Below, piece after piece: positions 1,021 through 41,687 of a stretch of 64,000 bases of DNA; the stretch's first letter is position 1, and each line of letters opens with the position of its first letter. The stretch comes from Gammaproteobacteria bacterium Ga0077554 (GTDB lineage: Bacteria; Pseudomonadota; Gammaproteobacteria; Ga0077554; Ga007554). The stretch is from positions 67,148 to 131,147 of the forward strand of contig LNFF01000031.1 in assembly GCA_001464585.1 (NCBI GenBank), given 5' to 3'. The notes under the pieces are model-generated. The model saw only the letters and a list, made by a program, of their open reading frames with translations. It did no database searches and was not told the origin of the DNA. The position numbers and the translations under genes were made by a program.

Positions 1021-2085
1021 TCAGTTCGTGTGTGCAGCGCTACATATAATTTCATTTAACGGTAGTCGACCCGAAACCTTGATTACGCCAATGGGCTTGC
1101 CTATACGCAATAGGCAATGCACGGTATTCTCATGGCCATACTCGGAACGGACGCGGTTTTGCAGCGCCAAGGCATGAGGGATGCATTGCTCCGGCACGCT
1201 GTTTAACTCCAGTCTGTTCAGTAAATCAGCCACCACATAATAAGGCTGGGCTGATAAGCCCTGCTCGGTCACGCTCAACCACACTTGTTGCAGGCAGCGT
1301 CCGGCATCAAAGGCTGCTGCATGATCGGAAGATCCAATGATCGCGACAACCAAGGGCGCTTTCTGGAAATTAGCTGCTTCGATAGCGGCAAACAATTTGT
1401 ATGCCCGGATACGGTTCAACCATTGTAGCCGATTCCAATCGGACATCAACTTCAGCAAACCCACGCCTCCGGGCGGCAATGCCAGTGTATCGACATGCAG
1501 GCCGCTAGCAAAATCTTCCGGCGAATCACCGTAGCGCAGACTTGCCGCAAACCACTCATTTGCCTCACGGGTCTGGAAACGGATCTCCGAAGCCTGTCTG
1601 ACCCAATCCGCTGTTTGACGGATACCGGCTCCCATAATTGTCCTGACGCCCACGTTATTAACCTGACAAGCCGCCAGCCGGTGAGCGACATCTGGGGCAA
1701 TCTCGGGACGATAGGGTAAACGATTTGTGTGGCGCAGTTTCCAAAGAGGTGTGTTGGATGGTTCAATGGCATTTGCTTGCCCCGTTACAGGGCCTCGCGC
1801 AAAAACGCCATCTTCATCAGGTATACCAAGATACCAAGAGGCCATATCCAAGCCAAGGGACTGCATTGCCCAAACCAGATTTTCGGCAGCAGCGCCCAAT
1901 GCAAGCCTGGTGGCGTGATAATCAGCCGGGAAGCCACCACGACGGCGTACCCGACCAGTCAGGGTGCTGGTATTATTATCCCAGTCAAAACACCATGGCT
2001 GGGAATTGTCAGCGGAGGGAGCGCTCCCGGCCGCTTCTATCAAAAATGCAACTTCTGGAATATAGAGTTTAGGTGTGGATATCAT
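1021..2085 (-). CDS. Nitroreductase-superfamily FMN oxidoreductase, two-lobed Acg-like architecture (354 aa)
   Basis: SAPSADNSQPWCF motif (the SxxNxQPW nitroreductase signature) near the N-terminus; about twice the length of a single nitroreductase domain. RBS GAGGGG 6 nt upstream of the ATG at 2085. Confidence 0.65.
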   Translation of the reverse strand: MISTPKLYIPEVAFLIEAAGSAPSADNSQPWCFDWDNNTSTLTGRVRRRGGFPADYHATRLALGAAAENLVWAMQSLGLDMASWYLGIPDEDGVFARGPVTGQANAIEPSNTPLWKLRHTNRLPYRPEIAPDVAHRLAACQVNNVGVRTIMGAGIRQTADWVRQASEIRFQTREANEWFAASLRYGDSPEDFASGLHVDTLALPPGGVGLLKLMSDWNRLQWLNRIRAYKLFAAIEAANFQKAPLVVAIIGSSDHAAAFDAGRCLQQVWLSVTEQGLSAQPYYVVADLLNRLELNSVPEQCIPHALALQNRVRSEYGHENTVHCLLRIGKPIGVIKVSGRLPLNEIICSAAHTN

Positions 2086-2368
2086 AGTTTTCCCCTCTCA
2101 TTCTTCATAACCTTCACTCACCCCCTGCCCCGCAATAGCAATCCTTTTGCCTCGCAGGATGTACTGCTCCGAGCACCGTTGAGGAATCTTAAGCAAGATC
2201 CCTCAATAATGATATGTACCATCCTACTCTTTGGGACATAATTGATTATATTAAAAATTTTTACCACTATCTAAGGAGGAGCACTCACTGTCAACGGGTT
2301 TTAATCCACACTTTTCATGATAGTACAAAACCAATTCGACGGTGATTTTATTTTAGTAAAAAGCTAAT

Positions 2369-2434
2369 AAATTGATTAGCTTGATATTTAATTGTCTCTT
2401 TTTTGAGACAATTAAATATCAAGCTAATCAATTT
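2369..2434. repeat. 66-bp perfect inverted repeat (30-bp arms, TTTTTT loop) containing a TGTCTC-N6-GAGACA core
   Basis: Checked base by base: 2369-2398 is the exact reverse complement of 2405-2434. Lies in the AT-rich divergent intergenic region between the nitroreductase and the acyltransferase genes. Confidence 0.9.
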
Positions 2435-2457
2435 CCATTCTCAAAAAGCAGGCTATC

Positions 2458-2475
2458 TGTCTCCTCATAGAGACA
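2458..2475. promoter_or_regulatory. Second TGTCTC-N6-GAGACA palindrome (operator-like), about 60 bp from the centre of the 66-bp inverted repeat
   Basis: tgtctc ctcata gagaca: same half-sites and spacing as the core of the 2369-2434 palindrome. Confidence 0.5.
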
Positions 2476-2731
2476 ATAATATCTCCCAATAAAACTATAA
2501 AATTAAATATGTATATGATTTTATTAATCTATTTAATTTTGGCCGAATTCTTGCATATAACGCTCCTTGGGCATCTTTGATGTTTAGGTTGTACCGGGTA
2601 ATGAGCAAGGGTTATTCCTGCGATTTTTTCAAAGAAAAATCCAGCACCCATCCAAAATATTACCGTACAATTTCTGGGCAACGGACAATATGACAGGGCT
2701 AGTCTCAGCAGGGACGGCAGGAGAGCTAATT

Positions 2732-3610
2732 ATGATTAACCGAGACATGGGCGAGCAAGTAATCGGCACCATAAAAAATAAAAATATATTGAATACAGGT
2801 GCATCACATTCATCCGGTGGTTTATCCCCCTTACACACACATAACATCAACGAATTAATCAAGAGCTTTTCACGACATTTCGAGATAGTGTCAGCAACTA
2901 CGGAGGAAGAAATCAGGCAGTCCTGGAAATTACGTTATCAGGTGTATAGTGTAGAAAATCACTTTGAAAACCCGGATGATAATCCTGACCAGTTAGAACG
3001 TGATGAGTATGACGCACATTCTGCCCATAGCCTGTTAATACATCGCGCAACGGGATTGGTCGTTGGTACGGTAAGGCTGATTCTCCCCAATCCTGCCAGC
3101 GTTGATGCTTTATTTCCCATTGAAGCGCATTGCGGAACGAGCTTTAATGGAGAAGCATTTAATCGCGCCACTTTGCCACGGCGCTCTTTGGCAGAAATCT
3201 CTCGTTTTGCCATATCGAAGGAATTTAAAAGAAGAATTCCTGATAAAAGTAATGTATTTGGTTCTCCCGATATTAACCAGGGACTCCAGCAGGAGATGGC
3301 TGATTTGGAGCGGCGGCTGATCCCTCACATTACTGTCGGGTTATTTGCTGCAATAGTACGTATGAGCGCAATGCATGGCATTACCCACTGGTATGCAGTA
3401 ATGGAGCCGGCGTTGCTACGCCTCTTGAAGCAGTTCAGTATCAACTTCCAGCCCGTTGGTTCCGCAGTTAATTACCATGGAAAACGCTACCCATGTGTTG
3501 CAACGGCCAGGGATGTGCTTGCACAAATGGAAGTTGGTTGCCCTGAAATCTGGAGACTTATTACCGATGAAGGCAGAATCTGGCCTTCCGCACATTCTCA
3601 GGCAGCATAG
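2732..3610 (+). CDS. LuxI/FeeM-like GNAT N-acyltransferase (N-acyl amino acid synthase / PEP-CTERM-system-associated acyltransferase family), paralog 1
   Basis: Autoinducer-synthase-like N-terminal pattern LRYQVY..E.DEYD....LL....G.VVGTVRL.LP; conserved C-terminal HWYAVMEPALLRLLK. Preferred start is the ATG at 2732 with GGAGAG RBS; the track start at 2690 is an alternative. Confidence 0.65.
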   Translation: MINRDMGEQVIGTIKNKNILNTGASHSSGGLSPLHTHNINELIKSFSRHFEIVSATTEEEIRQSWKLRYQVYSVENHFENPDDNPDQLERDEYDAHSAHSLLIHRATGLVVGTVRLILPNPASVDALFPIEAHCGTSFNGEAFNRATLPRRSLAEISRFAISKEFKRRIPDKSNVFGSPDINQGLQQEMADLERRLIPHITVGLFAAIVRMSAMHGITHWYAVMEPALLRLLKQFSINFQPVGSAVNYHGKRYPCVATARDVLAQMEVGCPEIWRLITDEGRIWPSAHSQAA

Positions 3611-3988: not shown

Positions 3989-4810
3989 TTGATCCATCAA
4001 GGACCAGGAGTGATAAAAGTGAATGAGCTAACGGAGAGTTTTTCCAAATATTTTAAAGTGGCAGTTGTGGCGCCAGGCGATGATGCATCGTTACGACAAG
4101 CACTGCATTTACGCTATCAGGTGTATTGTATAGAGCATCCTTTCGAAAAACCTGCGGGCACGGATGAAATCGAGCAGGATGAGTTTGATACATATTCCGC
4201 CCATAGCCTTTTACTCAGCCGCCGCAACGATGAGGTGGTGGGCACTGTGCGACTGGTCTTACCCCGGCGGGAACAGCCGCATATCTTGTTTCCCATTGAG
4301 CAGCATTGCGGAAAATTCTTTGATAAAAAATTGTTTGACACCAGCACGTTGCCCCGTGGTTCTATAGCCGAAATATCGCGTTTTGCAATTTCAAAAGAGT
4401 TCAAGAAACGCCTCATGGATACCGAATATCCCTGGGGTGCCAGTAATTTAAATGAACACGAAACAGAACATATGAAGGTGCTGGAACGTCGCATCATTCC
4501 CCATATCACATTAGGTTTGTTTTTAGCGATAGTGCGCATGAGTGTGCGGCATAATATTACGCATTGGTATGCGGTAATGGAACCGGCATTACTGCGTTTA
4601 TTGAAAAAATTTAGCATTGAATTTATACCGCTTAGCCCCATGGTTGATTACCATGGCAGCCGACAACCTTGTGTAGCAGAACTTGCGACGGTATTAGCGT
4701 CTATGGAACGCAATTGCCCGGACGTTTGGGCGCTGATTACCGACAATGGTGCGACATGGCACAGCGCGCTCGAAGCAGAGCAACACGCCTCCGTTAAACG
4801 CGTGGCATAA
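3989..4810 (+). CDS. LuxI/FeeM-like GNAT N-acyltransferase, paralog 2 (tandem duplicate of 2732-3610)
   Basis: Same motifs as paralog 1 (LRYQVYCIEHPFE, EQDEFDTYSAHSLL, VVGTVRLVLP, ITHWYAVMEPALLRLLKKF), roughly 55 percent identical by eye. The track start is a TTG at 3989; a GTG at 4019 has a better RBS (AGGAG, 9-nt spacing). Confidence 0.65.
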   Translation: MIHQGPGVIKVNELTESFSKYFKVAVVAPGDDASLRQALHLRYQVYCIEHPFEKPAGTDEIEQDEFDTYSAHSLLLSRRNDEVVGTVRLVLPRREQPHILFPIEQHCGKFFDKKLFDTSTLPRGSIAEISRFAISKEFKKRLMDTEYPWGASNLNEHETEHMKVLERRIIPHITLGLFLAIVRMSVRHNITHWYAVMEPALLRLLKKFSIEFIPLSPMVDYHGSRQPCVAELATVLASMERNCPDVWALITDNGATWHSALEAEQHASVKRVA

Positions 4811-5025: not shown

Positions 5026-5403
5026 TCATGACGCCATCAAATCCTCCACAGCCACGCCCAATACTCTGGATAGCGCGAGCAACACGCTGGCTTTACCTTC
5101 GTGCTTTCCCGACTCAATTTGTGACAGATAAGCTTGGCTGATGCCGGCCCGATCCGCCAGTGCGGAGACCGTCAGACGGCGGTGCTCCCGCCATACACGA
5201 ATAGGCGGCTCACCCTCCGCCAGACGGTGCGCAATGCTGGCGGGAACAAGCTCCTCCTCACCACGCTCCAGCCGCACCCGGATGCGGTCATAGTCCTGAA
5301 TATCCTCCAGCAGCTCGGCGCCCTCAATCAGTCGCTTGTATTCCGCATAGGGAATCACCGCATATTCAGGTTCGCCGTTACGCTCGATAATTTGTGCTTT
5401 CAT
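5026..5403 (-). CDS. XRE-family HTH antitoxin (HigA-like) of a type II TA pair
   Basis: C-terminal HTH (LTVSALADRAGISQAYLSQIESGK). Its ATG overlaps the stop of the upstream RelE/ParE remnant in an ATGA arrangement. Confidence 0.65.
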   Translation of the reverse strand: MKAQIIERNGEPEYAVIPYAEYKRLIEGAELLEDIQDYDRIRVRLERGEEELVPASIAHRLAEGEPPIRVWREHRRLTVSALADRAGISQAYLSQIESGKHEGKASVLLALSRVLGVAVEDLMAS

Positions 5404-25874: not shown

Positions 25875-26879
25875 ATGGACATCAAATTATTTGCCACCCT
25901 GCTTGATCCCGCCATTTTATTCTTTTTCCTGGGCATATTTGCCGCGCTGGTGCGATCCAATCTGGAGATACCGGCGCCCATCGCCAAATTCCTGTCCTTG
26001 TACCTGCTCATGGCGATAGGTATCAAAGGTGGGGTGGCCTTGAGCGTGAGCGGCTTCCATATGCAGATGCTGGTCGGGCTTGCGATCGCGCTGTTCATGG
26101 CCTTCCTTGTGCCGCTGTACACCTTTCCCCTGCTGCGCCGCAAGCTCGACGGCTTCAACGCCGCCGCCATCGCGGCAACCTATGGCTCGGTGAGCGCGGT
26201 GACCTTTATCGCCGCTGGACAATTCCTCGACAATCAGGGTATCGAATACGGCGGATACATGGCGGTGGCGCTGGTGATTATGGAGGCGCCGGCCGTGATC
26301 ATGGCGGTAGGGCTCGCCGCCATGACGCGCGCGAGCCTGGCGAAGCACGGCGCGGGCGCTGCAGTGACGAATATTGGGCAACATGACGGTTCGTTTTCAT
26401 TGAAAAAGATCCTGCACGAGTCGTTCACCGACGGGGCCATCCTCTTGCTGATGGGGAGTCTCTTAATCGGCTTTATCGTGGGGGCGGAGAGCTATAAGGT
26501 CATGAAGCCTTTCACCGGCGACCTGTTCAAGGGCTTGTTAGCATTTTTCCTGTTGGAGATGGGAATTCTGGTCGCCCGGCGCATCCGCGAGATGAAGGGT
26601 GTAGGGCCGTTCCTTATAGCCTTTGCCTTCCTGATACCGGTGGTCAACGCGGTGATTGTCATCACCTTGTCCCACCTCGCCGGCTTATCAGCGGGGGATA
26701 CGCTGATGCTCGCGGTGCTCGCGGCGAGCGCCTCCTATATCGTGGTGCCGGCGGTAGTCCGCGTCGCCATTCCGGAGGCAAATCCGGGACTCTACTTCGG
26801 CATGGCGCTGGCGCTCACCTTCCCGTTCAACGTCGTGCTCGGGATACCGATGTATTACCAAATGATCCAACTTTTGTGA
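25875..26879 (+). CDS. sbtA: SbtA-family sodium-dependent bicarbonate transporter-like permease
   Basis: LSLYLLMAIGIKGGVAL, AAIAATYGSVSAVTF and C-terminal MLAVLAASASYIVVP...AIPEANPGLYFG segments align by eye with cyanobacterial SbtA (LLTKIGLTGG, ALATGGLFGAVSG, VLAVIAASSSDISGPP..IPSANPSAYIG). Confidence 0.65.
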   Translation: MDIKLFATLLDPAILFFFLGIFAALVRSNLEIPAPIAKFLSLYLLMAIGIKGGVALSVSGFHMQMLVGLAIALFMAFLVPLYTFPLLRRKLDGFNAAAIAATYGSVSAVTFIAAGQFLDNQGIEYGGYMAVALVIMEAPAVIMAVGLAAMTRASLAKHGAGAAVTNIGQHDGSFSLKKILHESFTDGAILLLMGSLLIGFIVGAESYKVMKPFTGDLFKGLLAFFLLEMGILVARRIREMKGVGPFLIAFAFLIPVVNAVIVITLSHLAGLSAGDTLMLAVLAASASYIVVPAVVRVAIPEANPGLYFGMALALTFPFNVVLGIPMYYQMIQLL

Positions 26880-26890
26880 GCAGTTAAGCC

Positions 26891-27754
26891 ATGAGCCCGA
26901 CGCCGTCTTTGACCTATGCCGAAAGCCGGGTGGCCCTGCTCACCCAGCACGGCAAGGAAGGTGTGATCGCCCCGGTGCTTGATACGGCGCTCGGCTGCCG
27001 GGTCGAGCGGGTGGCTGGCTACGACACGGATCTCCTCGGCACCTTCACCCGCGACATTCCGCGCGCAGGCATGCAGCTTGAGGCGGCACGCAAGAAGGCG
27101 CGCATCGGTATGCGGCTTTCCGGTCTGCCGCTCGGGCTCGCCAGCGAGGGCTCGTTCGGCCTCGACCCGTTCGCGGGGATGTTTCCCTGGAACGTGGAGT
27201 TCCTGATTTTTCTTGATGATGAGCGCGGCCTGGAGGTCGTGGGCGTAGCCCAGGGCGCGGCGAACTTCTCCCACCTGCTGACGGACGATTGGGCTGCGGC
27301 CGAGGCCTTCGCCAAGCAGGCGGGATTTCCCGCACACCATCTGGTGGTACGCCCCGAGAGCGAGGACGACCCGCGCATGCGCAAGGGGATCGCCGCCTGG
27401 GTAGCGCTGGAAGCCGTCTTTGCCTGGGCGCTTGCTGCATCGGCCAGCGGGCGGGTATTCGTCGAAACCGACGTGCGCGTGCGCGCCCATGCCAATCCCA
27501 CGCGCATGGACAACATCCGCCTGGCGGCCGAAGACCTGGTGAAAAAGCTGCGCTCGCTCTGTCCGTCCTGCGGCACGCCAGGATTCTGGATCGTCGAGCG
27601 CGTGGATGGTCTCCCGTGCGAAGCCTGCGGCGCACCCACGCGCGAAACCCGCGCCGAGATTCTCGGCTGCCTCAAGTGCCCGCACCGCGAGACCCGCAAG
27701 CGGGCCGACCGGCAATACGCCGATCCGAGCCGCTGCGACTCCTGCAACCCCTGA
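26891..27754 (+). CDS. Hypothetical protein with C-terminal four-CxxC zinc-ribbon-like region, possibly translationally coupled to sbtA
   Basis: Starts 12 nt after the sbtA stop. Strong GC3 bias in this frame; the overlapping minus-strand ORFs are judged antisense artefacts. C-terminus CPSCG...CEACG...CLKCP...CDSC. Confidence 0.5.
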   Translation: MSPTPSLTYAESRVALLTQHGKEGVIAPVLDTALGCRVERVAGYDTDLLGTFTRDIPRAGMQLEAARKKARIGMRLSGLPLGLASEGSFGLDPFAGMFPWNVEFLIFLDDERGLEVVGVAQGAANFSHLLTDDWAAAEAFAKQAGFPAHHLVVRPESEDDPRMRKGIAAWVALEAVFAWALAASASGRVFVETDVRVRAHANPTRMDNIRLAAEDLVKKLRSLCPSCGTPGFWIVERVDGLPCEACGAPTRETRAEILGCLKCPHRETRKRADRQYADPSRCDSCNP

Positions 27755-28162
27755 CGCTCGCATGAGATCATGACCTTTAACGATTTCGTGAAAACTGGTG
27801 GAAAACCCGCACTGGCTCGTTTGCAGGATTCCATCCGCAAACGGGCAACATGGGCAGTGATTTGTAGTGGGTAACCCTCGGTAAGCGCAGGGAAAACAGC
27901 AAGGAATAGTCAGCCAAAAATCCGTCCGTCCTGACCCTTCGTCCGCCTGAGGTTGGAAGTTGATTGCCTACTGTATTCCACATAGAGGCGCCATAATATA
28001 TCCTTCCTGGCACAAAATAATCATTTATAAAAATGAATGCACATAGTAAAAAAGATTAACTATTGTTTTTCGATGCCCGGACATAGACTGACCCCAACCA
28101 AAAAACTATGGATACTACGGTACAGGTATGTGCATGAATTGGTCTGATTTAAACGCGTCACT

Positions 28163-30454
28163 ATGAGCGGCCTTCCCGAAGTTTCTGAAAAACCGCAAAA
28201 CGGGATAAAAGGCCTGAAGTACTGGCGCTATGACCTGCTGGCGGGTCTGCAGGTCGCCCTGGTGTCATTGCCGTTGTCACTGGGCATCGCCATCGCCTCG
28301 GGCGCGCCGCCGGTGACGGGCGTGATCTCCGCAATTATTGCCGGATTGATCTTCCCCTTCCTGGGCGGTGCTTATGTCACTATCAGCGGGCCGGCGGCGG
28401 GGCTGGCTCCGGCGCTGCTCGCGGGCATGGTGATGCTCGGCGGCGGCGATCTTGCGGCGGGTTATCCGGTGTTGCTGGTGGCGATCTGCCTTACCGGTCT
28501 GCTGCAGGTGGTACTGGCTTTGTTCAAGGCTGGACGCTTTGCGTTGTTTCTTCCGGTGACGGTGGTCGAGGGGATGCTGGCGGCGATCGGCATCATGATT
28601 ATCGTTAAACAGATCCCGGCACTGCTGGGCGATTTCGTGCCGCCCGCGAAGAGCATGCTGGTGACGATTTCGAACCTGCCCGGCAGTTTCTTCAGGTTCG
28701 ATCCGGCGATCACGTTGATCGGTGGCGTCTGCCTGTTCCTGATGTTCTACCTCAATCGCACGCACCATGCCTGGCTGCGGCGCATTCCGGCGCCGCTGTC
28801 CGTGGCAGGCATCGGCATCGGGCTTGGCTACCTGTTACAGCTTGACCCAAGGTATCTGATCACCATGCCCGGCAATATCATTGAGGGCGGCATCACGTTG
28901 CCAGCTTTCGATACGGTGTGGAATAACCCGGATCTGTGGTGGACAATACTGCTGGTGGTGATCACGCTTACGCTTATTGACGGCATTGAGTCACTGGCGA
29001 CCATCGCTGCGGTGGACAAGATCGATCCTTATCAACGCAAATCGGATCCCAACGTGACGCTACGCGCCATGGGCGTGTCAAACACGTTGTCGAGTATCTT
29101 TGGTGGGCTCACCATCATCCCCGGTGGCGTCAAAAGCCGCGTTAACATTGATGCGGGTGGGCGCACCTTGTGGGCCAACTTTTACAATGCGATGTTCCTG
29201 ATCGCGTTTCTATTCCTCGCCAAGGATTTGATCAGCCGCATCCCGCTTGCCGCCATCGGCGCGATTCTGGTGTATGTCGGCTGGCGGTTATGCGAGATCC
29301 AGGTGTTCCGTAAAACTTTCCGCATCGGGCGAGACCAGATCATCATTTTTGTGACAACGGTCACGGCGGTTCTCGCCACCGATCTTCTGTTCGGGATCCT
29401 GATTGGCGTCGTGGCGAAGATCGCGCTGCACGTGTACCTGCTCACGCCGTCGTTGCGTGCGGTGCTGACGGGACGCCTCACCTTTATCCAGTCGTGGCGG
29501 CTGTTGTGGGAAAATTTCTCGGGACTGTTCCGCAGCCCGGTTATCAAGGTCAAAGAAATCACTGACGGCGAGCATACGCAGCAGCACTACCGCATCTCGC
29601 TCGGCTCGATCGTGTGCTTCAATCTGCTGCCGTTCGACAAGTTGCTGCAATCCCTGCCACCCACGGCGGGCATCACGCTCGCCATCACTGAATCCGGCCA
29701 TATTATTGACCACACGGCGATGGAATACCTGCACCAGTTCCAGGAAGCGTGCCTGCAGACGGGCCGGCCCTTCGAGATGCTCGGCCTGGAGAATTTCTAC
29801 CCGTTTACGTCCCATCCATTGTCGGCGCGCATGCGCGATGCGAAACTCGTCAAGGACAAGGCGCAGATGTCAACACGCGAACAGCAGATGGCTGAGGTGG
29901 CGAGTCATTATGGTTTCCAGTTCACGCCGGACACGGTGGGCATGTTCAACAGCCACGATTTTATCTACCTGCGCCGTGGCAACAACCGTCAGGAGAGTTG
30001 TGTAATGACGGGGTCTTATCAGGGTTGCCGTATCAAGCTCTTCGATTACAGCCACACCGCCGCCCCGGATTATTACGCGGAGCACCGCCACACGCTGATC
30101 CAGCTCTACCGCCTGGAGACGGGCGATGTACAACTGCCAAATCTTGCGATCACGCCCGGAGAATATCTTGAACGTTACCTGGTGGAATATCAGGAAGTGG
30201 ATATGGCAGGCTGCCCGGGACTCGCCCCGCACTACCGTTTCTACGCGCAAGATCCTGCGCAGGCGCTGGCCTTTATCAGAACAGGACTCGAACAGTTGTT
30301 AAGTCAGCACCCCGGTATATATGTGGAGATCCGCAACAACGCCCTCCTGGCTTTTCGCCCGGATGAAGCGCTGGAACCCCCGGAGGCCATCGCATTATTG
30401 CTCGAATTCGCCGGGCTTGTGGGCAGCGCGCGCCGCGCGCCAGGCGCCCAATGA
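28163..30454 (+). CDS. SulP-family anion transporter (BicA-like) with STAS domain and an additional C-terminal extension of about 230 aa of unknown function
   Basis: N-terminal SulP signature (LKYWRYDLLAGLQVALVSLPLSLGIAIASGAPP). STAS-like region (...ITLAITESGHIIDHTAMEYLHQF). 763 aa against roughly 550-600 aa for typical SulP proteins. Confidence 0.65.
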   Translation: MSGLPEVSEKPQNGIKGLKYWRYDLLAGLQVALVSLPLSLGIAIASGAPPVTGVISAIIAGLIFPFLGGAYVTISGPAAGLAPALLAGMVMLGGGDLAAGYPVLLVAICLTGLLQVVLALFKAGRFALFLPVTVVEGMLAAIGIMIIVKQIPALLGDFVPPAKSMLVTISNLPGSFFRFDPAITLIGGVCLFLMFYLNRTHHAWLRRIPAPLSVAGIGIGLGYLLQLDPRYLITMPGNIIEGGITLPAFDTVWNNPDLWWTILLVVITLTLIDGIESLATIAAVDKIDPYQRKSDPNVTLRAMGVSNTLSSIFGGLTIIPGGVKSRVNIDAGGRTLWANFYNAMFLIAFLFLAKDLISRIPLAAIGAILVYVGWRLCEIQVFRKTFRIGRDQIIIFVTTVTAVLATDLLFGILIGVVAKIALHVYLLTPSLRAVLTGRLTFIQSWRLLWENFSGLFRSPVIKVKEITDGEHTQQHYRISLGSIVCFNLLPFDKLLQSLPPTAGITLAITESGHIIDHTAMEYLHQFQEACLQTGRPFEMLGLENFYPFTSHPLSARMRDAKLVKDKAQMSTREQQMAEVASHYGFQFTPDTVGMFNSHDFIYLRRGNNRQESCVMTGSYQGCRIKLFDYSHTAAPDYYAEHRHTLIQLYRLETGDVQLPNLAITPGEYLERYLVEYQEVDMAGCPGLAPHYRFYAQDPAQALAFIRTGLEQLLSQHPGIYVEIRNNALLAFRPDEALEPPEAIALLLEFAGLVGSARRAPGAQ

Positions 30455-30474
30455 CGGGTCAGTTACGCATGCGC

Positions 30475-31398
30475 TTATCCATCGTTGGGCTCTGGAATTT
30501 TGATGAGTTTATTTCCTTCTTGCAGCACAAACTCCTTGAATGCCTGGGCCGCAGCGGAAAAGCGCTTGCCCTCCCGATGCACGATGTACCAGTCTTTCAG
30601 GATAGGAAAACCTTCCACATTCAGCAACACCAACCGCCCCAGCTTAAATTCCATTTCCAGCGTATGCACCGATACGATACCCAGCCCCAGCCCCGCCATT
30701 ACAGCGTGTTTGATGGCTTCGTTACCGCTCATCTCCATGGTGGTGGTCATAGTCTGACCGTGTTGCTCGAGAAAGCGCTCAATGGCATTGCGTGTGCCCG
30801 ACCCTCTTTCGCGCACAATGAAGCTTTCTTCCAGAAGTCTGTGCAATGGAATACGACCGCTATGCGCCAAGGGATGGCCGGAGGGGGCAATGACCACCAA
30901 TGGGTTGCTCATGAACGAATCGGCTATCAACGGCATCTCTTTCGGCGGGCCGCCCATGATCGCCATGTCGGGAATATTATCCATCAATTGACGCAGAATC
31001 GTTTCCCGGTTGGTTACGTTGAGATTAACGGTAATCCCGGCATGCTGCTTGCAAAATGCCGCCAGTAGATAGGGTGCAAAATATTTTGCGGTGCTGGTGA
31101 CGGCGATGTCGAGCTTGCCGTGCTGGATGCCTTTCATATCCTCCAGCACGGCGCGGATATCGGTGAACTGTTGGGCAATGGTGCGGCTGAACACATACAT
31201 TTCACGCCCTGCGGCGGTGAGGAAAATCTTTTTTCCCATGTGTTCAAACAGCGGCATGCCCACTTCCTCTTCAAGCTGTTTAATCTGAATGGAAACGGCG
31301 GGTTGGGTGAGGTGGAGCTCTTCAGAGGCGCGTGTGAAACTTGAGTTGCGGGCGACTGCCTCAAGTAGCTTGAGCTGCCTGAAAGTGAAGTTCTTCAT
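30475..31398 (-). CDS. cbbR: LysR-family transcriptional regulator CbbR (divergent from cbbL)
   Basis: N-terminal HTH FRQLKLLEAVARNSSFTRASEELHLTQPAVSIQIKQLEEEVG. Divergently oriented immediately upstream of the form I RuBisCO genes. ATG at 31398 preferred over the track start. Confidence 0.8.
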   Translation of the reverse strand: MKNFTFRQLKLLEAVARNSSFTRASEELHLTQPAVSIQIKQLEEEVGMPLFEHMGKKIFLTAAGREMYVFSRTIAQQFTDIRAVLEDMKGIQHGKLDIAVTSTAKYFAPYLLAAFCKQHAGITVNLNVTNRETILRQLMDNIPDMAIMGGPPKEMPLIADSFMSNPLVVIAPSGHPLAHSGRIPLHRLLEESFIVRERGSGTRNAIERFLEQHGQTMTTTMEMSGNEAIKHAVMAGLGLGIVSVHTLEMEFKLGRLVLLNVEGFPILKDWYIVHREGKRFSAAAQAFKEFVLQEGNKLIKIPEPNDG

Positions 31399-31619
31399 CT
31401 TTAAAATATGCTCCTTGATTAAACGGCCGTGTATCTGTGAGCGGCACAATCCATTTGCAATAATATATGAATAGTATAATAATAATTAATTATCAATAAT
31501 GATTCAATTTATTTATAGTCTTTTTTAACTAACACAGGGTTTGGGTCATCAAAGTGGTTTTATTGGTAGTAGCGTTTTTTAATTATGGCTTTCGGGCTGA
31601 AGCTGAAAGGAGATGGTAA
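31399..31619. promoter_or_regulatory. cbbR-cbbL divergent promoter/operator region (AT-rich)
   Basis: 221-bp AT-rich intergenic region between divergent cbbR and cbbL. RBS AAAGGAG ahead of the cbbL ATG. Confidence 0.5.
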
Positions 31620-33044
31620 ATGAGTGATAAGAAAAAATTTAGCGCGGGTGTTAAAGAATATCGACAGAACTACTGGATGCCCAATTATGTGCCTCTGGAC
31701 ACCGATATTCTAGCGTGCTTCAAGATCGTCCCGCAAGCGGGTGTAGACCGTGAAGAAGTCGCCGCTGCCGTGGCCGCCGAATCTTCCACCGGCACCTGGA
31801 CCACAGTGTGGACCGACCTGTTGACCGACATGGATTATTACAAGGGCCGCGCCTACCGCATCGAAGACGTGCCCGGTGATGACACCTGCTTCTATGCTTT
31901 CGTTGCTTACCCGATTGACCTGTTCGAAGAAGGCTCCGTGGTCAACGTGTTTACCTCGCTGGTGGGTAACGTTTTCGGCTTTAAAGCCCTGCGTGCGCTG
32001 CGCCTTGAAGATGTGCGCTTCCCCATCGCTTATGTGAAAACCTGCGGCGGCCCGCCCAGCGGTATTCAGGTTGAGCGTGACAAGATGAACAAGTACGGTC
32101 GTCCATTGCTGGGCTGCACCATCAAGCCCAAGCTCGGCTTGTCTGCCAAGAACTACGGCCGTGCGGTATACGAATGCCTGCGCGGTGGCCTGGATTTCAC
32201 CAAGGACGACGAGAACATTAACAGCCAGCCCTTTATGCGCTGGCGTGACCGCTTCCTGTTTGTGCATGACGCAACCCTGTCCGCACAAGCTGAAACCGGC
32301 GAGCGTAAAGGCCACTACCTGAATGTCACCGCACCGACCCCGGAAATGATGTATCAGCGTGCTGAGTTCGCCAAAGAAATCGGCGCACCGATCATCATGC
32401 ACGATTACATCACCGGCGGCTTCTGCGCCAATACGGGTCTGGCCAACTGGTGCCGTGACAACGGTATGCTGCTGCATATCCATCGCGCCATGCACGCTGT
32501 AATCGACCGTAACCCGCACCACGGTATTCACTTCCGCGTGCTGGCAAAGATTCTGCGCCTCTCCGGCGGTGACCATCTGCACTCGGGCACCGTAGTTGGC
32601 AAGCTCGAAGGTGATCGCGCGCCGACCCTGGGTTTTGTTGACTTGATGCGTGAATCATTCATTCCTGAAGACCGCTCGCGCGGCATTTTCTTCGATCAGG
32701 ACTGGGGCTCCATGCCTGGCGTATTCCCGGTGGCATCCGGTGGTATTCACGTCTGGCACATGCCGGCACTGGTGAACATTTTCGGCGATGATTCGATTCT
32801 GCAATTCGGTGGTGGAACGCTCGGCCATCCATGGGGTAACGCCGCAGGTGCCTGCGCTAACCGTGTCGCACTTGAAGCCTGTGTTGATGCGCGCAATGAA
32901 GGCCGTGAAATTGAACGTGAAGGCAAAGAGATTCTTGCCAACGCCGCCAAGACCAGCCCCGAATTGAAAATCGCCATGGAAACCTGGAAAGAGATCAAGT
33001 TCGAGTTTGATACCGTGGATAAGCTGGACGTAGTGAACCGTTAA
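31620..33044 (+). CDS. cbbL: RuBisCO large subunit, form IA
   Basis: 474 aa; [20 protein letters not shown]...[24 protein letters not shown]...; carboxysome-type gene context. Confidence 0.95.
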
Positions 33045-33112
33045 TTTTTGGCTCGCTTTTTCTGAGTTGCATGATACGTGGGTGTTAAAACGCCTCTGCA
33101 AATGACCACTTT

Positions 33113-33153
33113 CGCCGTATATGTCGCCATTCATGAAATGGCAATATACGGCG
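33113..33153 (+). other. Stable imperfect hairpin in the cbbL-cbbS intergenic region
   Basis: cgccgtatatgtcgccatt catgaa atggcaatatacggcg. Possible processing or stability element between the large and small subunit cistrons. Confidence 0.5.
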
Positions 33154-33175
33154 ATTCAAAAGAAAGGAAATAAAA

Positions 33176-33508
33176 ATGTCTGATATTCAAGATTACAAAT
33201 CAACGCCCAAATTTGAAACCTTTTCGTATTTGCCAGCGATGACGCCGGAAAAAACCCGCCGTCAGATCGCCTACATTGTGAGTCAGGGCTGGAACCCGGG
33301 CATTGAACATGTAGAGCCTGAACGCGCTTTTAATTATTACTGGTATATGTGGAAGTTGCCGATGTTTGGTGAGCAGTCGGTCGATGTCATCATCGCTGAA
33401 CTGGAAGCCTGTCACCGCGCGCATCCCAATAACCACGTGCGACTGATCGGCTACGACAATTACTCGCAGAGTCAGGGCAGCGCTTTCGTGGTGTTTCGCG
33501 GCCGGTAA
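33176..33508 (+). CDS. cbbS: RuBisCO small subunit
   Basis: 110 aa, [20 protein letters not shown]...[13 protein letters not shown]. Confidence 0.95.
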
Positions 33509-33532
33509 TCCGATGCCTAGGTAAGCAACCGA

Positions 33533-33562
33533 TAGTGGGCGATCCGGCACAGGCTCGCCCAC
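33533..33562 (+). other. Hairpin (gtgggcga...tcgcccac) between cbbS and csoS2; possible partial terminator or attenuator
   Basis: 8-bp GC-rich stem with 12-nt loop, no clear U-tract. Confidence 0.35.
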
Positions 33563-33613
33563 GTATCACATGAATTGCCGATTGTAGTAAAAGTGTAATG
33601 GAAGGATAAAAGC

Positions 33614-35890
33614 ATGAGCAACGCCATGGCAGAAAATCAGGGTTCCGTGCCCAGCGGCACAGCGGGTCGCATGTTATCACGTGCGCGCCGTCAAGCACTG
33701 TCGCACGGCGGTAAGTCGGGCACCGGACAGGTTGCAGCAAAACCGCAACCAGCCAGGGTGAAACCGGGTTCTGACGCCCGTTCCACCGCCTCGGCCACTG
33801 CCCCGGTCTATTCTGCCCCGGCAAATAACAGCCCGCCACCCAGCAACGGCGACGCGCAGGGAAAAGCTAGTGTTGCGGGAAGTAGGATGTCGGAAGCGAC
33901 CGAAAAAACCGACACCTGTGGCTGCAAAAATACCCCAGCACAACAAACGCTGGAAGCCATCTGCGCCTTGGTGGATGCAGAGCCAAGCGCCGTAGGGTCG
34001 AGTGCTTCCAGTGTTCGCCAGCTCTGCCAAAGCCGCCGCCAGGCACTTTCCAGTCAAGGCAAACTGGCCATCAAGCCCAACGGCAAGAATGGTTCGGCGC
34101 GTCGCAACAGTGGCGGCTCCAGAATGGTGAATAGCGTGATGAATGGCCTGAGCGGGCGTGCAGCAGCCCAGGCGCGACGTGAAGAGTTATGCGTGAATGG
34201 TCGCGGCGATAGCCCAGTGTGCCGCCCCAGTGGACGGGTGCGCAGCACGGCCGCCGTTACGCCAGTCAAGGTAGAAGAAGGCAACACCCTGCGTGGCAAC
34301 CTGATTACCGGCACCCAGGTAGAGCGTAACAACAAGATAACAGGTATCGAGGCCGGCAGTTGCCGCGCGATCACCGGCACCGAATACATTGGTACAGAAC
34401 AGTACGAGACATTATGCGCCACCACACCTTCCGCAGCACCCGCTAAAGTGGGCGTGGGTTCAACCAGCCGCAGCCAGCGCGTAAGTGGTACGCAGGTGGG
34501 CCGCAGCACCCAGGTAACGGGTGACGAGTATGGCGCCTGCAAGAATGTGACGGGCAACGAATACCTGAACGCCGAACAATTTGAATCACTGTGCGCCAGC
34601 AAGCCCGCGCCCAGCCCCGCCAAGGTGGGCATGTTTGCTACGCGCGCCGGGCACTCCGTCAGCGGTACTGAAGTCGGTCGTAGCCTCAAAGTAACCGGAG
34701 ATGAACCCGGCGCCTGCCTTAAGTTGACCGGTAGCCAGTATTATCAACCCGATCAGTCCGGCGCCGTATGTCAGGGCAGCGGTGTACCGCACAAAGTAAG
34801 CGTGATGAGCACGATCCGTGGACGCCAGGTCACCGGCGTCAACGTGGCATCAAGCGCATCTGTCACCGGAAGTGAATACGGTGCATGTGCGGGCGTGACG
34901 GGCACTGAATACACTGGGCTGCAACAATATCAGGGCTGTAACCGTGCACCGGTATTAACACCAGAAAAAGTTACCGTACTGGGCACCTGGCGCGGCCAGG
35001 CGGTTTCTGGTACGAACGTGGAACACAACTCAAAAGTCACTGGCGATGAGTATGGGGGTTGCCAGCCGATTTCCGGTACTGAATACATTGGTCCCGGCCA
35101 ATATACGGCAGTGTGCGCGCCCAATGCGCTTACCGCTACACGGGAGCGTATTTCCACACCACGCGGTGCGGCGGGCGCCAGCATGACGGGCGTACGGCAA
35201 GGCATTGAGAACAAAGTCACAAGCAGTGCGCGTGGAGCCAGTGGATTAAGTGCCGGCCAGCGCCTAAGTGGCACACCTTATTCAGATGACGCGCGCCCCG
35301 CTCTTTCGGGCGCGGTAGGAATGAGCCAGCACCCTTTGACACGGGGTCCTGCTGATCAAACCAATCGGGTTAACATGAGCAGTGTTGTCGCCCCTGTGCA
35401 ACGTAATTTCAGCGTGATGTCACCCGCGCGCACGGCGCAGGAAAGCCAGCTTAGCCGGATTACCGGCACGGCTTACGGCGCACAAGGCCGTATTACCGGG
35501 CCGGTGAATCTGGCCGCCGGACTGGTTTCTGGCACACCGGAGTTTCGTTATCGTGACGATCAGGACGCTGGCTATGTCGCCGCGCCACCTGTCGCACAGA
35601 CGCCAGCAGTAGTATCATCCAATCGTGTCACAGGGGAAGGTCGTGAAGGAGGTTTTTCCATCACGGGCGCCGCATGGAAACGCGGCGGCACCACCACGGG
35701 TACCGAAGGTACCTCTGCAACGCGGCGCAATCCGACATTGCGCGGCGATCAGCGCAGCATGGCGATGCAGCAAATCACTGCGATGAAAGAACGCGAACAT
35801 CTGCAAGTGCCACCAAGCAAAGTAACTGGCAGCAGCGGCAACACCGCTACTGGTTCCACTATCACTTACTCGGGAGGCGCGCGCGGCTGA
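33614..35890 (+). CDS. csoS2: Carboxysome assembly protein CsoS2
   Basis: 758 aa, repetitive V(T/S)G.EYG and Cys-containing repeat motifs, N-terminal RARRQALSHGGKSG. Follows cbbS. Confidence 0.9.
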   Translation: MSNAMAENQGSVPSGTAGRMLSRARRQALSHGGKSGTGQVAAKPQPARVKPGSDARSTASATAPVYSAPANNSPPPSNGDAQGKASVAGSRMSEATEKTDTCGCKNTPAQQTLEAICALVDAEPSAVGSSASSVRQLCQSRRQALSSQGKLAIKPNGKNGSARRNSGGSRMVNSVMNGLSGRAAAQARREELCVNGRGDSPVCRPSGRVRSTAAVTPVKVEEGNTLRGNLITGTQVERNNKITGIEAGSCRAITGTEYIGTEQYETLCATTPSAAPAKVGVGSTSRSQRVSGTQVGRSTQVTGDEYGACKNVTGNEYLNAEQFESLCASKPAPSPAKVGMFATRAGHSVSGTEVGRSLKVTGDEPGACLKLTGSQYYQPDQSGAVCQGSGVPHKVSVMSTIRGRQVTGVNVASSASVTGSEYGACAGVTGTEYTGLQQYQGCNRAPVLTPEKVTVLGTWRGQAVSGTNVEHNSKVTGDEYGGCQPISGTEYIGPGQYTAVCAPNALTATRERISTPRGAAGASMTGVRQGIENKVTSSARGASGLSAGQRLSGTPYSDDARPALSGAVGMSQHPLTRGPADQTNRVNMSSVVAPVQRNFSVMSPARTAQESQLSRITGTAYGAQGRITGPVNLAAGLVSGTPEFRYRDDQDAGYVAAPPVAQTPAVVSSNRVTGEGREGGFSITGAAWKRGGTTTGTEGTSATRRNPTLRGDQRSMAMQQITAMKEREHLQVPPSKVTGSSGNTATGSTITYSGGARG

Positions 35891-35895
35891 TCTGA

Positions 35896-37527
35896 ATGAA
35901 TACTCGCAACCGCCCCGCGCGTAGCACAAGCTCATTAGCTGGAGTACGCCCCACCCCTTACGGGCTGGGGACGCCAAGCGGTGCCTTGCCCGGACGCCAG
36001 CCTGCCTATGCCTATCCGGCGCGGCAGCCAGTGCATACGGTGGCGAGCACAGCGAGCGCGATGGAACCCAACCCGGCCTGCACGATACAGAGCGGCCGTT
36101 TGTGTCGCCACCCATTGACGAACGACATTGAAAATCGGCGTTTGCTGGCGCATGAGCGAACCATTAAGGAACGCTTTGCCAATATCGTTCCGGTATTGAA
36201 GCGCATTGCTGGCTTACAGCATACGCCAGACTTTGTCGAGCAGGCGCAAGCCATTGCCGTTCAGGAGCTGGGCTTTTCGCTACGCACCTCGATTCTCGCG
36301 GATGCCTGGGCGACTGATCTTGATATGCGCGCCCTGTACGGCGAAAGTGTGCTGGGTACATTACGTTTACTGGCGGAGCAAACCCGCGCAGCAAATCCGA
36401 CTGAAACCGGGGAAGGAAACGTAGATGAGGCGATGTCATTTTTACTGGATTGTGGTTACCACGCCGTGGACATTTCGCCTTGCTCGGACGGGCGATTAAA
36501 AGGCTTGGCGCGTTACATTTTACGCCTGCCCGCCGCTGCGGTGCGCAGCCGCAAGTCGTATGCTGGCGCAATGTTTGATGTGGAGGCCAATGTAAAACGC
36601 TGGGTCGAAACCGAGTTGATGCGTTTTCGTGAAGGCCGCCCAGTCACCGCTGATGCCGGTACGCGTTATCTGAAGATGGTGGTATACCACACCAGCAGTT
36701 CTGATCCCGCGCACGAGGGTTGCGCCGCGCATGGCAGCAATGAAACCCAGGCGGCAGGAAAAGGGCTGGAGCGCTTGCGCGAGTTCCGCCAGGCGATTGA
36801 AAACAGTTTTTGTTGTGGTGCATCGGTGGATATGTTGCTGGTGGGTGTCGATACCGATACCGATGCAATCAAGGTACACATACCCGATGCTGACGGTGAG
36901 ATAAGTTTGTATCGCGCCGTGGATAACCTGAGCCTGTATCGCGAGACGGTCAACGATAGCGAAAACAGCGCGCGGCTCAAGGTGTATCAGGCGATTCAGG
37001 CGGCCAGCGCCAAAGAGGGCTGGGCCGGCGGCAACGGCGAACCTCATGAAGGTATGCGGCGTTTGATTGCCACGCTGTTGATTAACAACCTGTCGCAGAT
37101 CGAATATGTGTGCGGCAACTGGGGTGGACGTTACCCCGACATCGGGCATAACGAACGCTTTATCAGTGTCGGCGATGGCTTTGAAGAATTTCAGTTACGC
37201 AACCTGGCGTACTTCGCCCACCTGCATACAGTGGAAGAAGGCGCGCCGGATATGGATATCGGTATTAAAATTTTCAAAATGTTGAACGTGAGCCATGGCT
37301 TGCCGATCCCACTGGCAATTCACTTCCGCTACGACAGTCGCGTGCCGGGTAACCGTGAACGCACCGTGGAACGCTGCCAGCGCATCAAGGCAGCAATTGA
37401 ATCGCGCTATAGCGAGTTGGCGCGTCAAGGGCTATTAGTGAGCGGCATGACAGTACAGGATAAACAGCCTGGCAGCCCGATTGAATTGATCGGCACCAGT
37501 GGCACTGAAAGTTTTGCGGGGCACTGA
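35896..37527 (+). CDS. csoSCA: Carboxysome shell carbonic anhydrase CsoSCA (CsoS3)
   Basis: 543 aa, CSDGRLKG motif; position after csoS2. Confidence 0.85.
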   Translation: MNTRNRPARSTSSLAGVRPTPYGLGTPSGALPGRQPAYAYPARQPVHTVASTASAMEPNPACTIQSGRLCRHPLTNDIENRRLLAHERTIKERFANIVPVLKRIAGLQHTPDFVEQAQAIAVQELGFSLRTSILADAWATDLDMRALYGESVLGTLRLLAEQTRAANPTETGEGNVDEAMSFLLDCGYHAVDISPCSDGRLKGLARYILRLPAAAVRSRKSYAGAMFDVEANVKRWVETELMRFREGRPVTADAGTRYLKMVVYHTSSSDPAHEGCAAHGSNETQAAGKGLERLREFRQAIENSFCCGASVDMLLVGVDTDTDAIKVHIPDADGEISLYRAVDNLSLYRETVNDSENSARLKVYQAIQAASAKEGWAGGNGEPHEGMRRLIATLLINNLSQIEYVCGNWGGRYPDIGHNERFISVGDGFEEFQLRNLAYFAHLHTVEEGAPDMDIGIKIFKMLNVSHGLPIPLAIHFRYDSRVPGNRERTVERCQRIKAAIESRYSELARQGLLVSGMTVQDKQPGSPIELIGTSGTESFAGH

Positions 37528-40883: not shown

Positions 40884-41687
40884 ATGTCAGAAGGATTGGA
40901 ACAATACCGGGTTCGTAAAGAACCCTACTACCGTGCCGTGAGCGATGAGGTGGCATTGTACGAAGCCGCCTATTCGGTGCGTATGCCGATCATGCTAAAA
41001 GGCCCGACCGGGTGCGGCAAAACACGTTTCGTGGAATACATGGCGTGGAAACTTGGCAAGCCCTTGATCACTGTAGCGTGCAACGAAGACATGACCGCCT
41101 CTGATCTGGTGGGGCGTTTCCTGCTCGCTGCCAGTGGCACGCGCTGGCAGGATGGCCCGCTCGCACTGGCGGCACGGTATGGCGCGATCTGTTACCTGGA
41201 TGAAGTGGTGGAAGCGCGTCAGGACACTACGGTGGTGATTCATCCGCTCACGGATAATCGCCGTGTGTTGCCGCTGGAAAAAAAAGGCGAGCTGCTCAAC
41301 GCGCACGCCGATTTCCAGATTGTGATTTCGTATAACCCCGGCTATCAAAGCTTGATGAAAGACCTGAAGCAATCCACCAAACAACGCTTTGGCGCGCTGG
41401 ATTTTAATTACCCCGCGCACGATATCGAAACCGAAATCGTCGCCCACGAAACCGGCGTGAGCAGTGATGTCGCTGGCAAGCTGGTGAGCATCGCCGAACG
41501 TGCGCGTAATCTCAAAGGCCACGGTCTCGATGAAGGTATCTCGACGCGCATGTTGATCTATGCAGGTTCGCTGATCAACAAAGGTGTCGACCCTGTTGCG
41601 GCATGCCGCGTCACCCTGGTACGCCCCATTACTGATGACCCGGATATGCGCGATGCGCTGGATGCGGCTGTAACGACATTCTTTTAA
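40884..41687 (+). CDS. cbbQ: CbbQ, MoxR-type AAA+ ATPase RuBisCO activase subunit
   Basis: 267 aa, Walker [11 protein letters not shown]. Confidence 0.9.

Follow-up and report, generated by a model that had tools for sequence, protein, structure and literature searches.

Two copies of the dyad-symmetric motif TGTCTC-N6-GAGACA were found in a 64,000-nucleotide (nt) stretch of Gammaproteobacteria bacterium Ga0077554 (contig LNFF01000031.1; hereafter the window, i.e., the whole stretch analysed), and they most likely form a sigma-54 enhancer in which GlrR/QseF-type sites precede N-acyl amino acid synthase genes. The element is located between two divergent gene starts, with the synthase (acyltransferase) genes on one side and a nitroreductase-like gene on the other. 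Judged from the sequence, the activator has a somewhat better than even chance of being a true GlrR/QseF ortholog, and any specific account of the long perfect arms that surround the distal site deserves clearly less confidence than that. Without those arms the element would be an unremarkable sigma-54 enhancer, and a system of this known kind would have a new target here.

Two dyad-symmetric sites lie upstream of a predicted sigma-54 promoter

There are exactly two occurrences of TGTCTC-N6-GAGACA in 64 kb, site 1 (2393-2410) and site 2 (2458-2475), even when one mismatch is allowed (~0.01 expected), and the looser form TGTC-N10-GACA is found at the same two places only. An earlier, sequence-only reading of the window had pointed to the second copy with its CTCATA spacer and placed it 60 bp away; the copy is present, and the distance between the two sites, start to start as well as centre to centre, is 65 bp. 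The same reading had described site 1 as the core of a 66-bp exact inverted repeat with a TTTTTT loop, and this was borne out by the comparison of the arms, since the 30 nt of 2369-2398 and of 2405-2434 are 100% complementary around a loop of 6 nt.

The predicted promoter, TGGCCGAATTCTTGCA, is the sole match to TGGC-N7-TTGCW in 64 kb, and it fits the -24/-12 spacing of TGGCAC-N5-TTGCW. It begins 64 nt past site 2 and ~175 nt ahead of the called acyltransferase start codon, and it faces the acyltransferase genes. The centres of the two sites are located at ~-99 and ~-164 from the predicted start, which is the usual location of a sigma-54 enhancer, i.e., they fall within the ~80-200 bp upstream in which dyad-symmetric sites conserved together with their promoter are expected. 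The coordinates of all features are collected in Table 1.

Table 1. Features of the element and of the adjoining genes, in window coordinates
Feature	Position	Strand	Remarks
66-bp perfect palindrome	2369..2434	.	30-nt arms around site 1, i.e., 24 nt more than the site on each side
Site 1, distal putative activator site	2393..2410	.	TGTCTC-TTTTTT-GAGACA; centre at ~-164 from the predicted start
Site 2, proximal putative activator site	2458..2475	.	TGTCTC-CTCATA-GAGACA; centre at ~-99
Outer motif TTGATTA, left arm	2373..2379	+	mirrors the right-arm element; four closest loci only (A1, A3)
Element E1, TAATCAAT, right arm	2425..2432	+	AATCA core begins 15-16 nt past the GAGAC half of site 1
Element E2, TGATTTTA	2516..2523	+	begins 40 nt past site 2 and stops 16 nt short of the promoter
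Predicted sigma-54 promoter, TGGCCGAATTCTTGCA	2540..2555	+	-24 GG at 2541-2542, -12 GC at 2553-2554; predicted start near 2566
Direct repeat AAGCTAAT, copies 1 and 2	2361..2368 and 2421..2428	+	end points of the 60-bp deletion
Putative target gene 1, PEP-CTERM/exosortase-associated acyltransferase (N-acyl amino acid synthase)	2732..3610	+	292 aa as called
Putative target gene 2, paralogous N-acyl amino acid synthase	4019..4810	+	263 aa as called; TIGR03694 274.2 bits
Divergent gene, nitroreductase-like flavin mononucleotide (FMN) protein	1021..2085	-	first of a nitroreductase, O-methyltransferase, ThiF operon

The layout is conserved in related loci and faces the acyltransferase genes

Six loci were compared, namely the window and five other acyltransferase loci with protein identities of 82% (L007), 76% (L008), 72% (L128), 57% (L134) and 54% (L129); the genomes with this layout include GCA_040183005.1, GCA_031421115.1 and GCA_947085745.1. 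The order site 1, site 2, TGATTT(T)A element and promoter is common to the five other loci, with exceptions in L128 and L129. Sites 1 and 2 are found in all six, with one half-site degenerate in each of L008, L134 and L129, and the spacing between them is 65 bp in L007, L008, L128 and L129 and 62 bp in L134. The AATCA sequence follows site 1 after 15-16 nt in 6/6 loci, including the two that are devoid of a long palindrome, and in the window, L007, L008 and L134 the distance from site 2 to TGATTT(T)A is 40-41 nt. L128 carries a deletion of ~22-23 nt (about two helical turns) between site 2 and the promoter, and the TGATTT(T)A element is not clearly conserved in L129. A sigma-54 match scoring 9-11 of 12 is present at the aligned position in every one of the six. 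In the alignment of all six loci (A1) the invariant columns are essentially GTCTC, GAC, AATCA, GTCTC, ACA, TTTA, TGG and TTGC. The half-sites are conserved in the orthologous loci, so that the earlier proposal of a pair of sites for a dimeric regulator survives this comparison and is supported by it.

That proposal went further, in that one operator was to serve both divergent arms. In its classical form, a pair of sites would be bound cooperatively by a dimeric repressor or activator that governs two divergent sigma-70 promoters, those of the nitroreductase and of the acyltransferase operons. Two palindromic copies in a divergent intergenic region would be in keeping with this, as would the weak sigma-70-like matches on the minus strand (2294-2266, 2273-2245 and 2444-2415). 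However, these matches are at the level of the shuffles (4 versus 3.0), the motif is that of a known sigma-54 activator, and the HTH_3 gene close by (5026-5403) lacks conservation in L007. Furthermore, in six loci the sites are at a fixed distance from a conserved sigma-54 promoter, which is directed at the acyltransferase genes alone, and conservation among the loci is poor in the left half of the intergenic region, the length of which varies by ~100 nt. A single operator for both arms is not supported by these data, and we consider the classical operator pair very improbable. On the nitroreductase side the six loci have no conserved sigma-54 promoter and, together with the poorly conserved left half, this makes the sigma-54 enhancer look unidirectional.

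A bidirectional enhancer with a leftward sigma-54 promoter was rejected as well: the candidate promoter, AGGCAAAAGGATTGCT (2152-2137, minus strand), belongs to an insertion specific to the window, and none of the five other loci has an equivalent of it. This sigma-54-like match is directly beside a third, imperfect palindrome, which the sequence-only reading had noticed near 2170-2200 and which is real. It was measured at 2179-2206, where TTGAGGAATCTT (2179-2190) and AAGATCCCTCAA (2195-2206) are complementary at 11/12 positions around a 4-nt loop. The third palindrome is single-copy in the 64-kb window, and it is contained in a ~100-nt segment (window ~2118-2215) without a counterpart in the orthologous L007 and L008; no equivalent inverted repeat was found in the orthologous loci compared. 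It is not part of the conserved enhancer.

On the acyltransferase side, a conserved sigma-70-like promoter (TTGACA, 17 nt, TATATT) is situated between the sigma-54 promoter and the acyltransferase gene in the longer leader of L008 (3399-3440), L128 (431-470) and L133 (108-150). A perfect palindrome, GGGAATATATTCCC, overlaps this promoter in the three loci, and the window and L007 do not carry the segment.

When synthase loci of lower identity (38-55%) were taken from metagenomes, a perfect GTCTC-N6-GAGAC was found upstream in 3/69, and an 11/12 sigma-54 promoter accompanied it in 3/3. A strong sigma-54 promoter was present in 7/61 distant loci, versus 1.0 in shuffles, and most of the seven have TGTC-N10-GACA ~100-130 nt upstream. 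These counts (3/69 and 7/61) indicate that the link between this type of enhancer and the synthases is recurrent, but in a minority of lineages. The full pattern TAATCAA-N{24,28}-GTCTC-N6-GAGACA-N{38,43}-TGATTT, which the window matches, gave no hits in the JGI metagenome contigs.

The motif and its spacing are those found at glmY/glmZ and beside GlrR-like genes

To our knowledge, GlrR/QseF is known almost only from the control of glmY/glmZ and of rpoE in enterobacteria. In Enterobacteriaceae, sites for this regulator (YfhA) ahead of the sigma-54 promoters of glmY and glmZ are said to have been described by Reichenbach in 2009. The binding consensus of this sigma-54 activator is TGTCN10GACA (Goepel 2011, PMC3045617), and at glmY/glmZ its motifs lie >100 bp upstream of the sigma-54 promoter, with sites resembling those of integration host factor (IHF) flanking the proximal motif (PMC3045617). 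Both sites of the window fit the consensus, and there is no other match to it in the window. A scan for double sites (GTCTC-N6-GAGAC, 44-52 nt, GTCTC-N6-GAGAC; one genome per species) yielded >119 loci, ~45 of them from Enterobacterales. In the Enterobacterales loci checked with Rfam, the sites were upstream of GlmY or GlmZ in 6/6, with a double-site gap of 47-49 nt. In addition, the double site adjoins a GlrR-like gene in five Methylobacillus species, in a Motiliproteus metagenome-assembled genome (MAG) and in an unclassified proteobacterium (L065). Where the locus holds most of the gene, the adjoining product shares 58-64% identity with E. albertii GlrR, and the short C-terminal fragments in L025 and L039 are 48-51% identical to GlrR. 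When the products of L010, L033 and L065 were compared with the NCBIfam models, the GlrR model was the best one, with 629-685 bits versus ~420 for the next family.

In Methylobacillus the double site comes right after the stop codon of the GlrR-like gene (L010 5152-5231, L039 7519-7598, L061 965-1044, L117 7081-7160 and L025 463-542), and is followed by a sigma-54 promoter (TGGCAC-N5-TCGCT) for the gene of a conserved ~150-aa protein without a family match. The glrR-distal site has 6-13 extra palindromic bases per side, which are species-specific, in 4/5 of these loci (in L025 the extension is of 10 nt and belongs to the other site), and the extended site could double as the terminator of the operon. 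Pairs of sites were also observed beside another NtrC-family gene, whose product is 38-46% identical to GlrR, in Stutzerimonas, Pseudomonas and Cupriavidus (L109 5806-5907, L124 6731-6814 and L090 6714-6795), just past the 3′ end of the gene in L109 and L124 and upstream of its start in L090. In all three the pair precedes a sigma-54-type promoter and a membrane permease gene. Hence, the half-site is common to more than one activator subfamily. In a gammaproteobacterial MAG from a biocathode (L066 7500-7760) the double site is ~87 nt from a sigma-54 promoter, TGGCATATCGATTGC (minus strand), which leads into a region without an evident open reading frame (ORF) start and without an Rfam match, possibly an unannotated small RNA. 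Unrelated hits, i.e., repeat arrays or hairpins resembling repetitive extragenic palindromes that contain GTCTC-N6-GAGAC (Acidobacteriaceae, Bacteroidaceae, cyanobacteria, L022, L115 and L120), were set aside. Regular arrays of GTCTC-N6-GAGAC hairpins, with a period of ~63-66 or 22 nt and likewise unrelated to the element, were seen in Acidobacteriaceae, Bacteroidaceae and Thermoanaerobaculia MAGs (L067 5841-6426, L016 95-429, L099 1472-1883, L020 42-211 and L069 4-151).

A similar plan has been described for the PEP-CTERM box, a 17-nt motif 1 ending in TTTACA that precedes a sigma-54 motif by ~63 nt (mean 62.8), in a system that goes with PrsK/PrsR/PrsT (Haft et al. 2006, PMC1569441). If the two sites of the window were bound by PrsR or by a PrsR paralogue, the synthases would be tied to the PEP-CTERM regulon. 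Neighbourhood and plan are indeed the same (a repeated upstream motif, a ~63-nt spacer and a -24/-12 promoter): the genes are of the PEP-CTERM/exosortase-associated family and lie near genes for a PEP-CTERM protein and a PrsT-like TPR protein, the 64 nt between site and promoter are close to the reported mean of 62.8 nt (PMC1569441), both motifs start with TGTC and end with ACA, and GlrR-like proteins score 355-397 bits on the PrsR model. The boxes themselves can be compared directly, since the PEP-CTERM gene 4-5 kb to the left is preceded by three TGTCGGATTTCTTTACA boxes, ~110-120 nt apart, and then a sigma-54 promoter, TGGCATGGTATCTGCA (L001 5423-5860, minus strand), and its ortholog in L007 has the same boxes and its own sigma-54 promoter (L007 1560-2000). 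This indicates that the organism uses sigma-54 and that the PrsR box is distinct. The TGTCGGATTTCTTTACA boxes are 17 nt long, non-palindromic and end in TTTACA, whereas TGTCTC-N6-GAGACA is an 18-nt perfect palindrome; furthermore, the exact motif and spacing occur by GlrR-like genes and glmY/glmZ, not by PEP-CTERM genes. As PEP-CTERM boxes the sites were therefore rejected, because their spacing fits but their sequence does not, and we regard binding by PrsR or a paralogue as quite improbable.

The long arms of the palindrome co-vary and call for a separate explanation

The sequence-only reading held that 30-nt arms far exceed what a binding site needs. We agree, and the length of the arms needs an explanation separate from that of the enhancer core. 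The stem is AT-rich (A-T in 22/30 pairs) and, as single-stranded DNA, the palindrome has a folding energy of -29.7 kcal/mol (z = -10.5 to -14.5 versus shuffles). In L005, a contig of an independent sample, the right arm, the loop and the inner left arm are identical to those of the window, and homologous long palindromes occupy the same position in three diverged orthologous loci; hence, the palindrome is not an assembly artefact.

Long arms are confined to the four closest loci (window, L007, L008 and L128), and they are imperfect in L007, L008 and L128, with hairpin energies of -18.9, -16.8 and -9.3 kcal/mol, respectively. No comparable hairpin was found in L134 or L129 (z -0.1 and -2.5). 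Each of the four palindromic loci carries an outer TTGATT(A/T) motif on either side, at 20-22 nt from the core; the intervening segments are for the most part complementary, and the outer TTGATT/AATCAA does not vary on either arm (4/4). When the arm pairs were compared across these loci, 11/30 had changed on both sides, 12/30 were invariant and 85% of the cells were paired. None of 500 shuffles reached the observed values, and slid controls gave 1-5 compensatory pairs. Arms that differ from locus to locus and yet stay complementary indicate that the symmetry is maintained, either by hairpin-templated repair or by selection for a hairpin or cruciform.

AATCA is present to the right of site 1 in 6/6 loci and its left copy is found in the palindromic clade only, so that the simplest history is one in which the right flank of site 1 was mirrored leftward. 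The 24 extra bases per side are most likely a lineage-specific mirror extension with concerted evolution of the arms. The core palindrome, itself under selection, would nucleate a hairpin in replication, and template switching would then copy one flank, including AATCAAT, onto the other; the perfection of the arms would be a by-product of this process rather than a requirement for binding. Template-switch mutagenesis at quasipalindromes, as well as palindrome-stimulated deletion between short direct repeats, is known from E. coli. The likeness extends to both features, since the arms co-vary here as if copied and most of the hairpin is enclosed by the 8-nt direct repeats at which a deletion ends, with the difference that the process would act here over evolutionary time on a regulatory site. 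Shorter, unrelated extensions exist at other GlrR-type sites (6-13 nt in Methylobacillus, 9 in Symbiopectobacterium, 8 in Acerihabitans and 8 in one Xenorhabdus), and most enterobacterial GlrR-type sites have no palindromic extension.

The deletion was observed in the Logan assembly of the same run, SRR2905791 (L002 9630-9700 versus L001 9569-9769), where 60 bp are missing between the AAGCTAAT repeats, i.e., window 2361-2420 or 2369-2428, leaving the junction ...TAGTAAAAAGCTAATCAATTTCC... Lost with it are the left arm and the loop as well as 16 nt of the right arm, and thus all of site 1, so that AATCAAT and site 2 stay. Otherwise L002 differs from the ENA contig by 1 mismatch over 11.5 kb aligned. 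A de Bruijn assembler cannot invent junction k-mers, and therefore reads with the deletion junction exist; the deletion is either a population variant or a product of polymerase slippage across the hairpin in library preparation.

The same observations can be read in favour of a function of the long palindrome as a cruciform or hairpin, which would be a layer added to the sigma-54 enhancer and would make it sensitive to supercoiling, or would let the deletion act as a one-way switch. Extrusion under negative supercoiling would alter the access to the distal site, or its geometry, together with that of the flanking AATCAAT elements. The dyad symmetry kept through change in four lineages (11/30 compensatory pairs, 0/500 shuffles), the very stable hairpin (-29.7 kcal/mol, z -14.5), the outer TTGATT/AATCAA invariant on both arms in four loci and the allele without site 1 in the same sample are all consistent with this. 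However, L134 and L129 share the layout without a long palindrome, L128 has largely lost its hairpin (-9.3 kcal/mol), the extensions elsewhere are sporadic and short, as mutational bias predicts, and the deletion could stem from in vitro amplification of the library. A structural function of this kind is unlikely in our view. Its more specific version, in which the palindrome is a selected part of the enhancer, the cruciform gates the distal site and the mirrored bending sites, and deletion between the AAGCTAAT repeats gives a heritable low-expression allele, is slightly less likely again. If it were true, the output of N-acyl amino acid signals or surfactants would be supercoiling-sensitive and variable within the population; we know of no DNA-structure-dependent sigma-54 enhancer of such kind. 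Whichever process maintains the symmetry, co-varying arms together with a deletion allele offer a compact natural case for telling mutational bias from selection in the evolution of palindromes.

The sequence-only reading had itself offered other explanations of the arms, namely the scar of a mobile element (a miniature inverted-repeat transposable element or an insertion sequence end) or a bidirectional terminator, to which a transcribed RNA hairpin can be added. The perfect, long and AT-rich arms and the short AAGCTAAT direct repeats near their ends would suit a mobile element, and sub-threshold Rfam matches were obtained with generic hairpin families, namely RNA-OUT (31.2 bits, gathering 41), mir-190 (33.9, gathering 48) and miRNA precursors. 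However, no second copy of the 30-nt arm was found in the 64-kb window at <=3 mismatches or in its flanks, 134 other loci had none apart from the same locus, and a search of 72,556 plasmids gave no match; the palindrome occupies the same position, with diverged sequence, in orthologs at 72-82% protein identity; and its centre is the motif of site 2, whose arms are not palindromic. The scar of a mobile element is not supported by these data. As for a terminator, the element lies between two gene starts and has nothing to terminate, its AT-rich stem is followed by no U-tract, and the terminator scan made no call, so that this suggestion is not supported either. An RNA hairpin would have to come from an element that is upstream of the predicted transcription start, and every Rfam score is below gathering. 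The mobile-element or terminator reading is largely refuted, and this group of explanations retains next to no probability.

Proposed action of the enhancer and comparison with known systems

Several observations weigh against a sigma-54 enhancer with GlrR/QseF-type sites. One TGGC-N7-TTGCW match in 64 kb is not significant alone (2.85 expected), and the weight of the promoter match comes from its position and conservation. A gene for an enhancer-binding protein was found neither in the window nor around any related locus out to 10 kb, and there are two sites here versus three at glmY. GTCTC-N6-GAGAC pairs are found also beside NtrC-family proteins that are 38-47% identical to GlrR (Pseudomonas, Cupriavidus and a Rhodocyclaceae MAG); hence, the motif denotes a GlrR-like specificity, and the protein behind it need not be a strict ortholog. 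Both conserved elements, E1 and E2, match the IHF consensus poorly. The full consensus, AATCAATTTATTA, is found solely at the edge of the left arm, in the window and in L007 (in the window at 2377-2365, i.e., on the minus strand of the outer left motif), and not at the conserved elements. Finally, the symmetry kept in four diverged lineages and the invariant outer TTGATT could equally reflect selection instead of a neutral origin of the arms.

From the layout we infer the following course of binding and looping. A phosphorylated response regulator of the NtrC family, with GlrR/QseF-type specificity, would bind sites 1 and 2 as dimers, and both dimers would be on the same face of the DNA, because the 65-bp spacing corresponds to ~6 helical turns. 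The bound dimers would then oligomerise, and the AT-rich DNA toward the promoter would be bent, probably by an IHF-type protein at the AATCA and TGATTT elements; by analogy with glmY (PMC3045617), E1 and E2 are possible IHF-type bending sites. In this way the activator would touch the sigma-54 RNA polymerase at -24/-12, leading to the open complex, and the promoter at 2540-2555 would transcribe both N-acyl amino acid synthase genes.

As at glmY/glmZ, the sites have the TGTCN10GACA motif, here in the stricter form TGTCTC-N6-GAGACA, they are separated by the same pairing distance, they lie ~100 bp or more upstream of a -24/-12 promoter, and conserved A/T-rich elements of the TTGATT/AATCA type flank the proximal site, with a poor match to the IHF consensus. 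Unlike glmY/glmZ, the target is a pair of protein-coding synthase genes and not a small RNA gene, the host is, as far as its genes tell, an uncultured autotrophic gammaproteobacterium, there are two sites instead of three, no glrK-glrR operon is adjacent, and the distal site is inside a 66-bp palindrome. NtrC-type enhancers offer a second comparison: glnAp2 has two NtrC dimer sites, which are adjacent, and IHF assists looping at nifH or Pu. The paired dyad-symmetric sites on one helical face, ~100-165 bp upstream, and the bendable AT-rich DNA between them and the promoter recall these enhancers, whereas the half-site sequence is different and the 65-bp spacing is wider than at glnAp2.

If this reading is correct, it extends the GlrR/QseF regulon and fits the idea that sigma-54 governs the cell exterior, and the current understanding is not overturned. 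One regulator family with two defined sites would provide a testable handle on what triggers the N-acyl amino acid synthases, a poorly understood family.

Neighbouring genes and host

The product of gene 1 scores 280.6 bits on TIGR03694 (cutoff 111.95) and matches Pfam FeeM and Acetyltransf_5; its ORF, read from the first ATG, would encode 306 aa, and the called start is at 2732. Genes 1 and 2 are probably on the same transcript, and the tandem acyltransferase pair is kept in L007 and L128.

In the longer source contig, genes for an O-methyltransferase, a ThiF-like protein, a PEP-CTERM protein and a PrsT-like TPR protein were found to the left of the nitroreductase-like gene. In the lineage of the window the ThiF-like (L001 6134-7036) and nitroreductase-like (window 1021-2085) proteins are encoded by separate genes. 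The two are fused in a protein of ~660 aa in L008 (861-2843) and L129 (7225-9201), and they are always divergent from the acyltransferase gene. The presence of this fusion beside the synthase points to a possible functional unit of the two.

The source contig stems from an activated-carbon metagenome. For RecA the identity is 91% to MAGs of uncultured Gammaproteobacteria and 85% to Thioalbus, and the 90% clusters of carboxysome and other proteins carried no taxonomic information. An alpha-carboxysome/carbon-concentrating cluster is located at window 25875-37527 and 40884-41687, with an SbtA-like bicarbonate transporter, the large subunit of form I RuBisCO, CsoS2, the carbonic anhydrase CsoSCA and CbbQ, and its presence indicates that the host is autotrophic.

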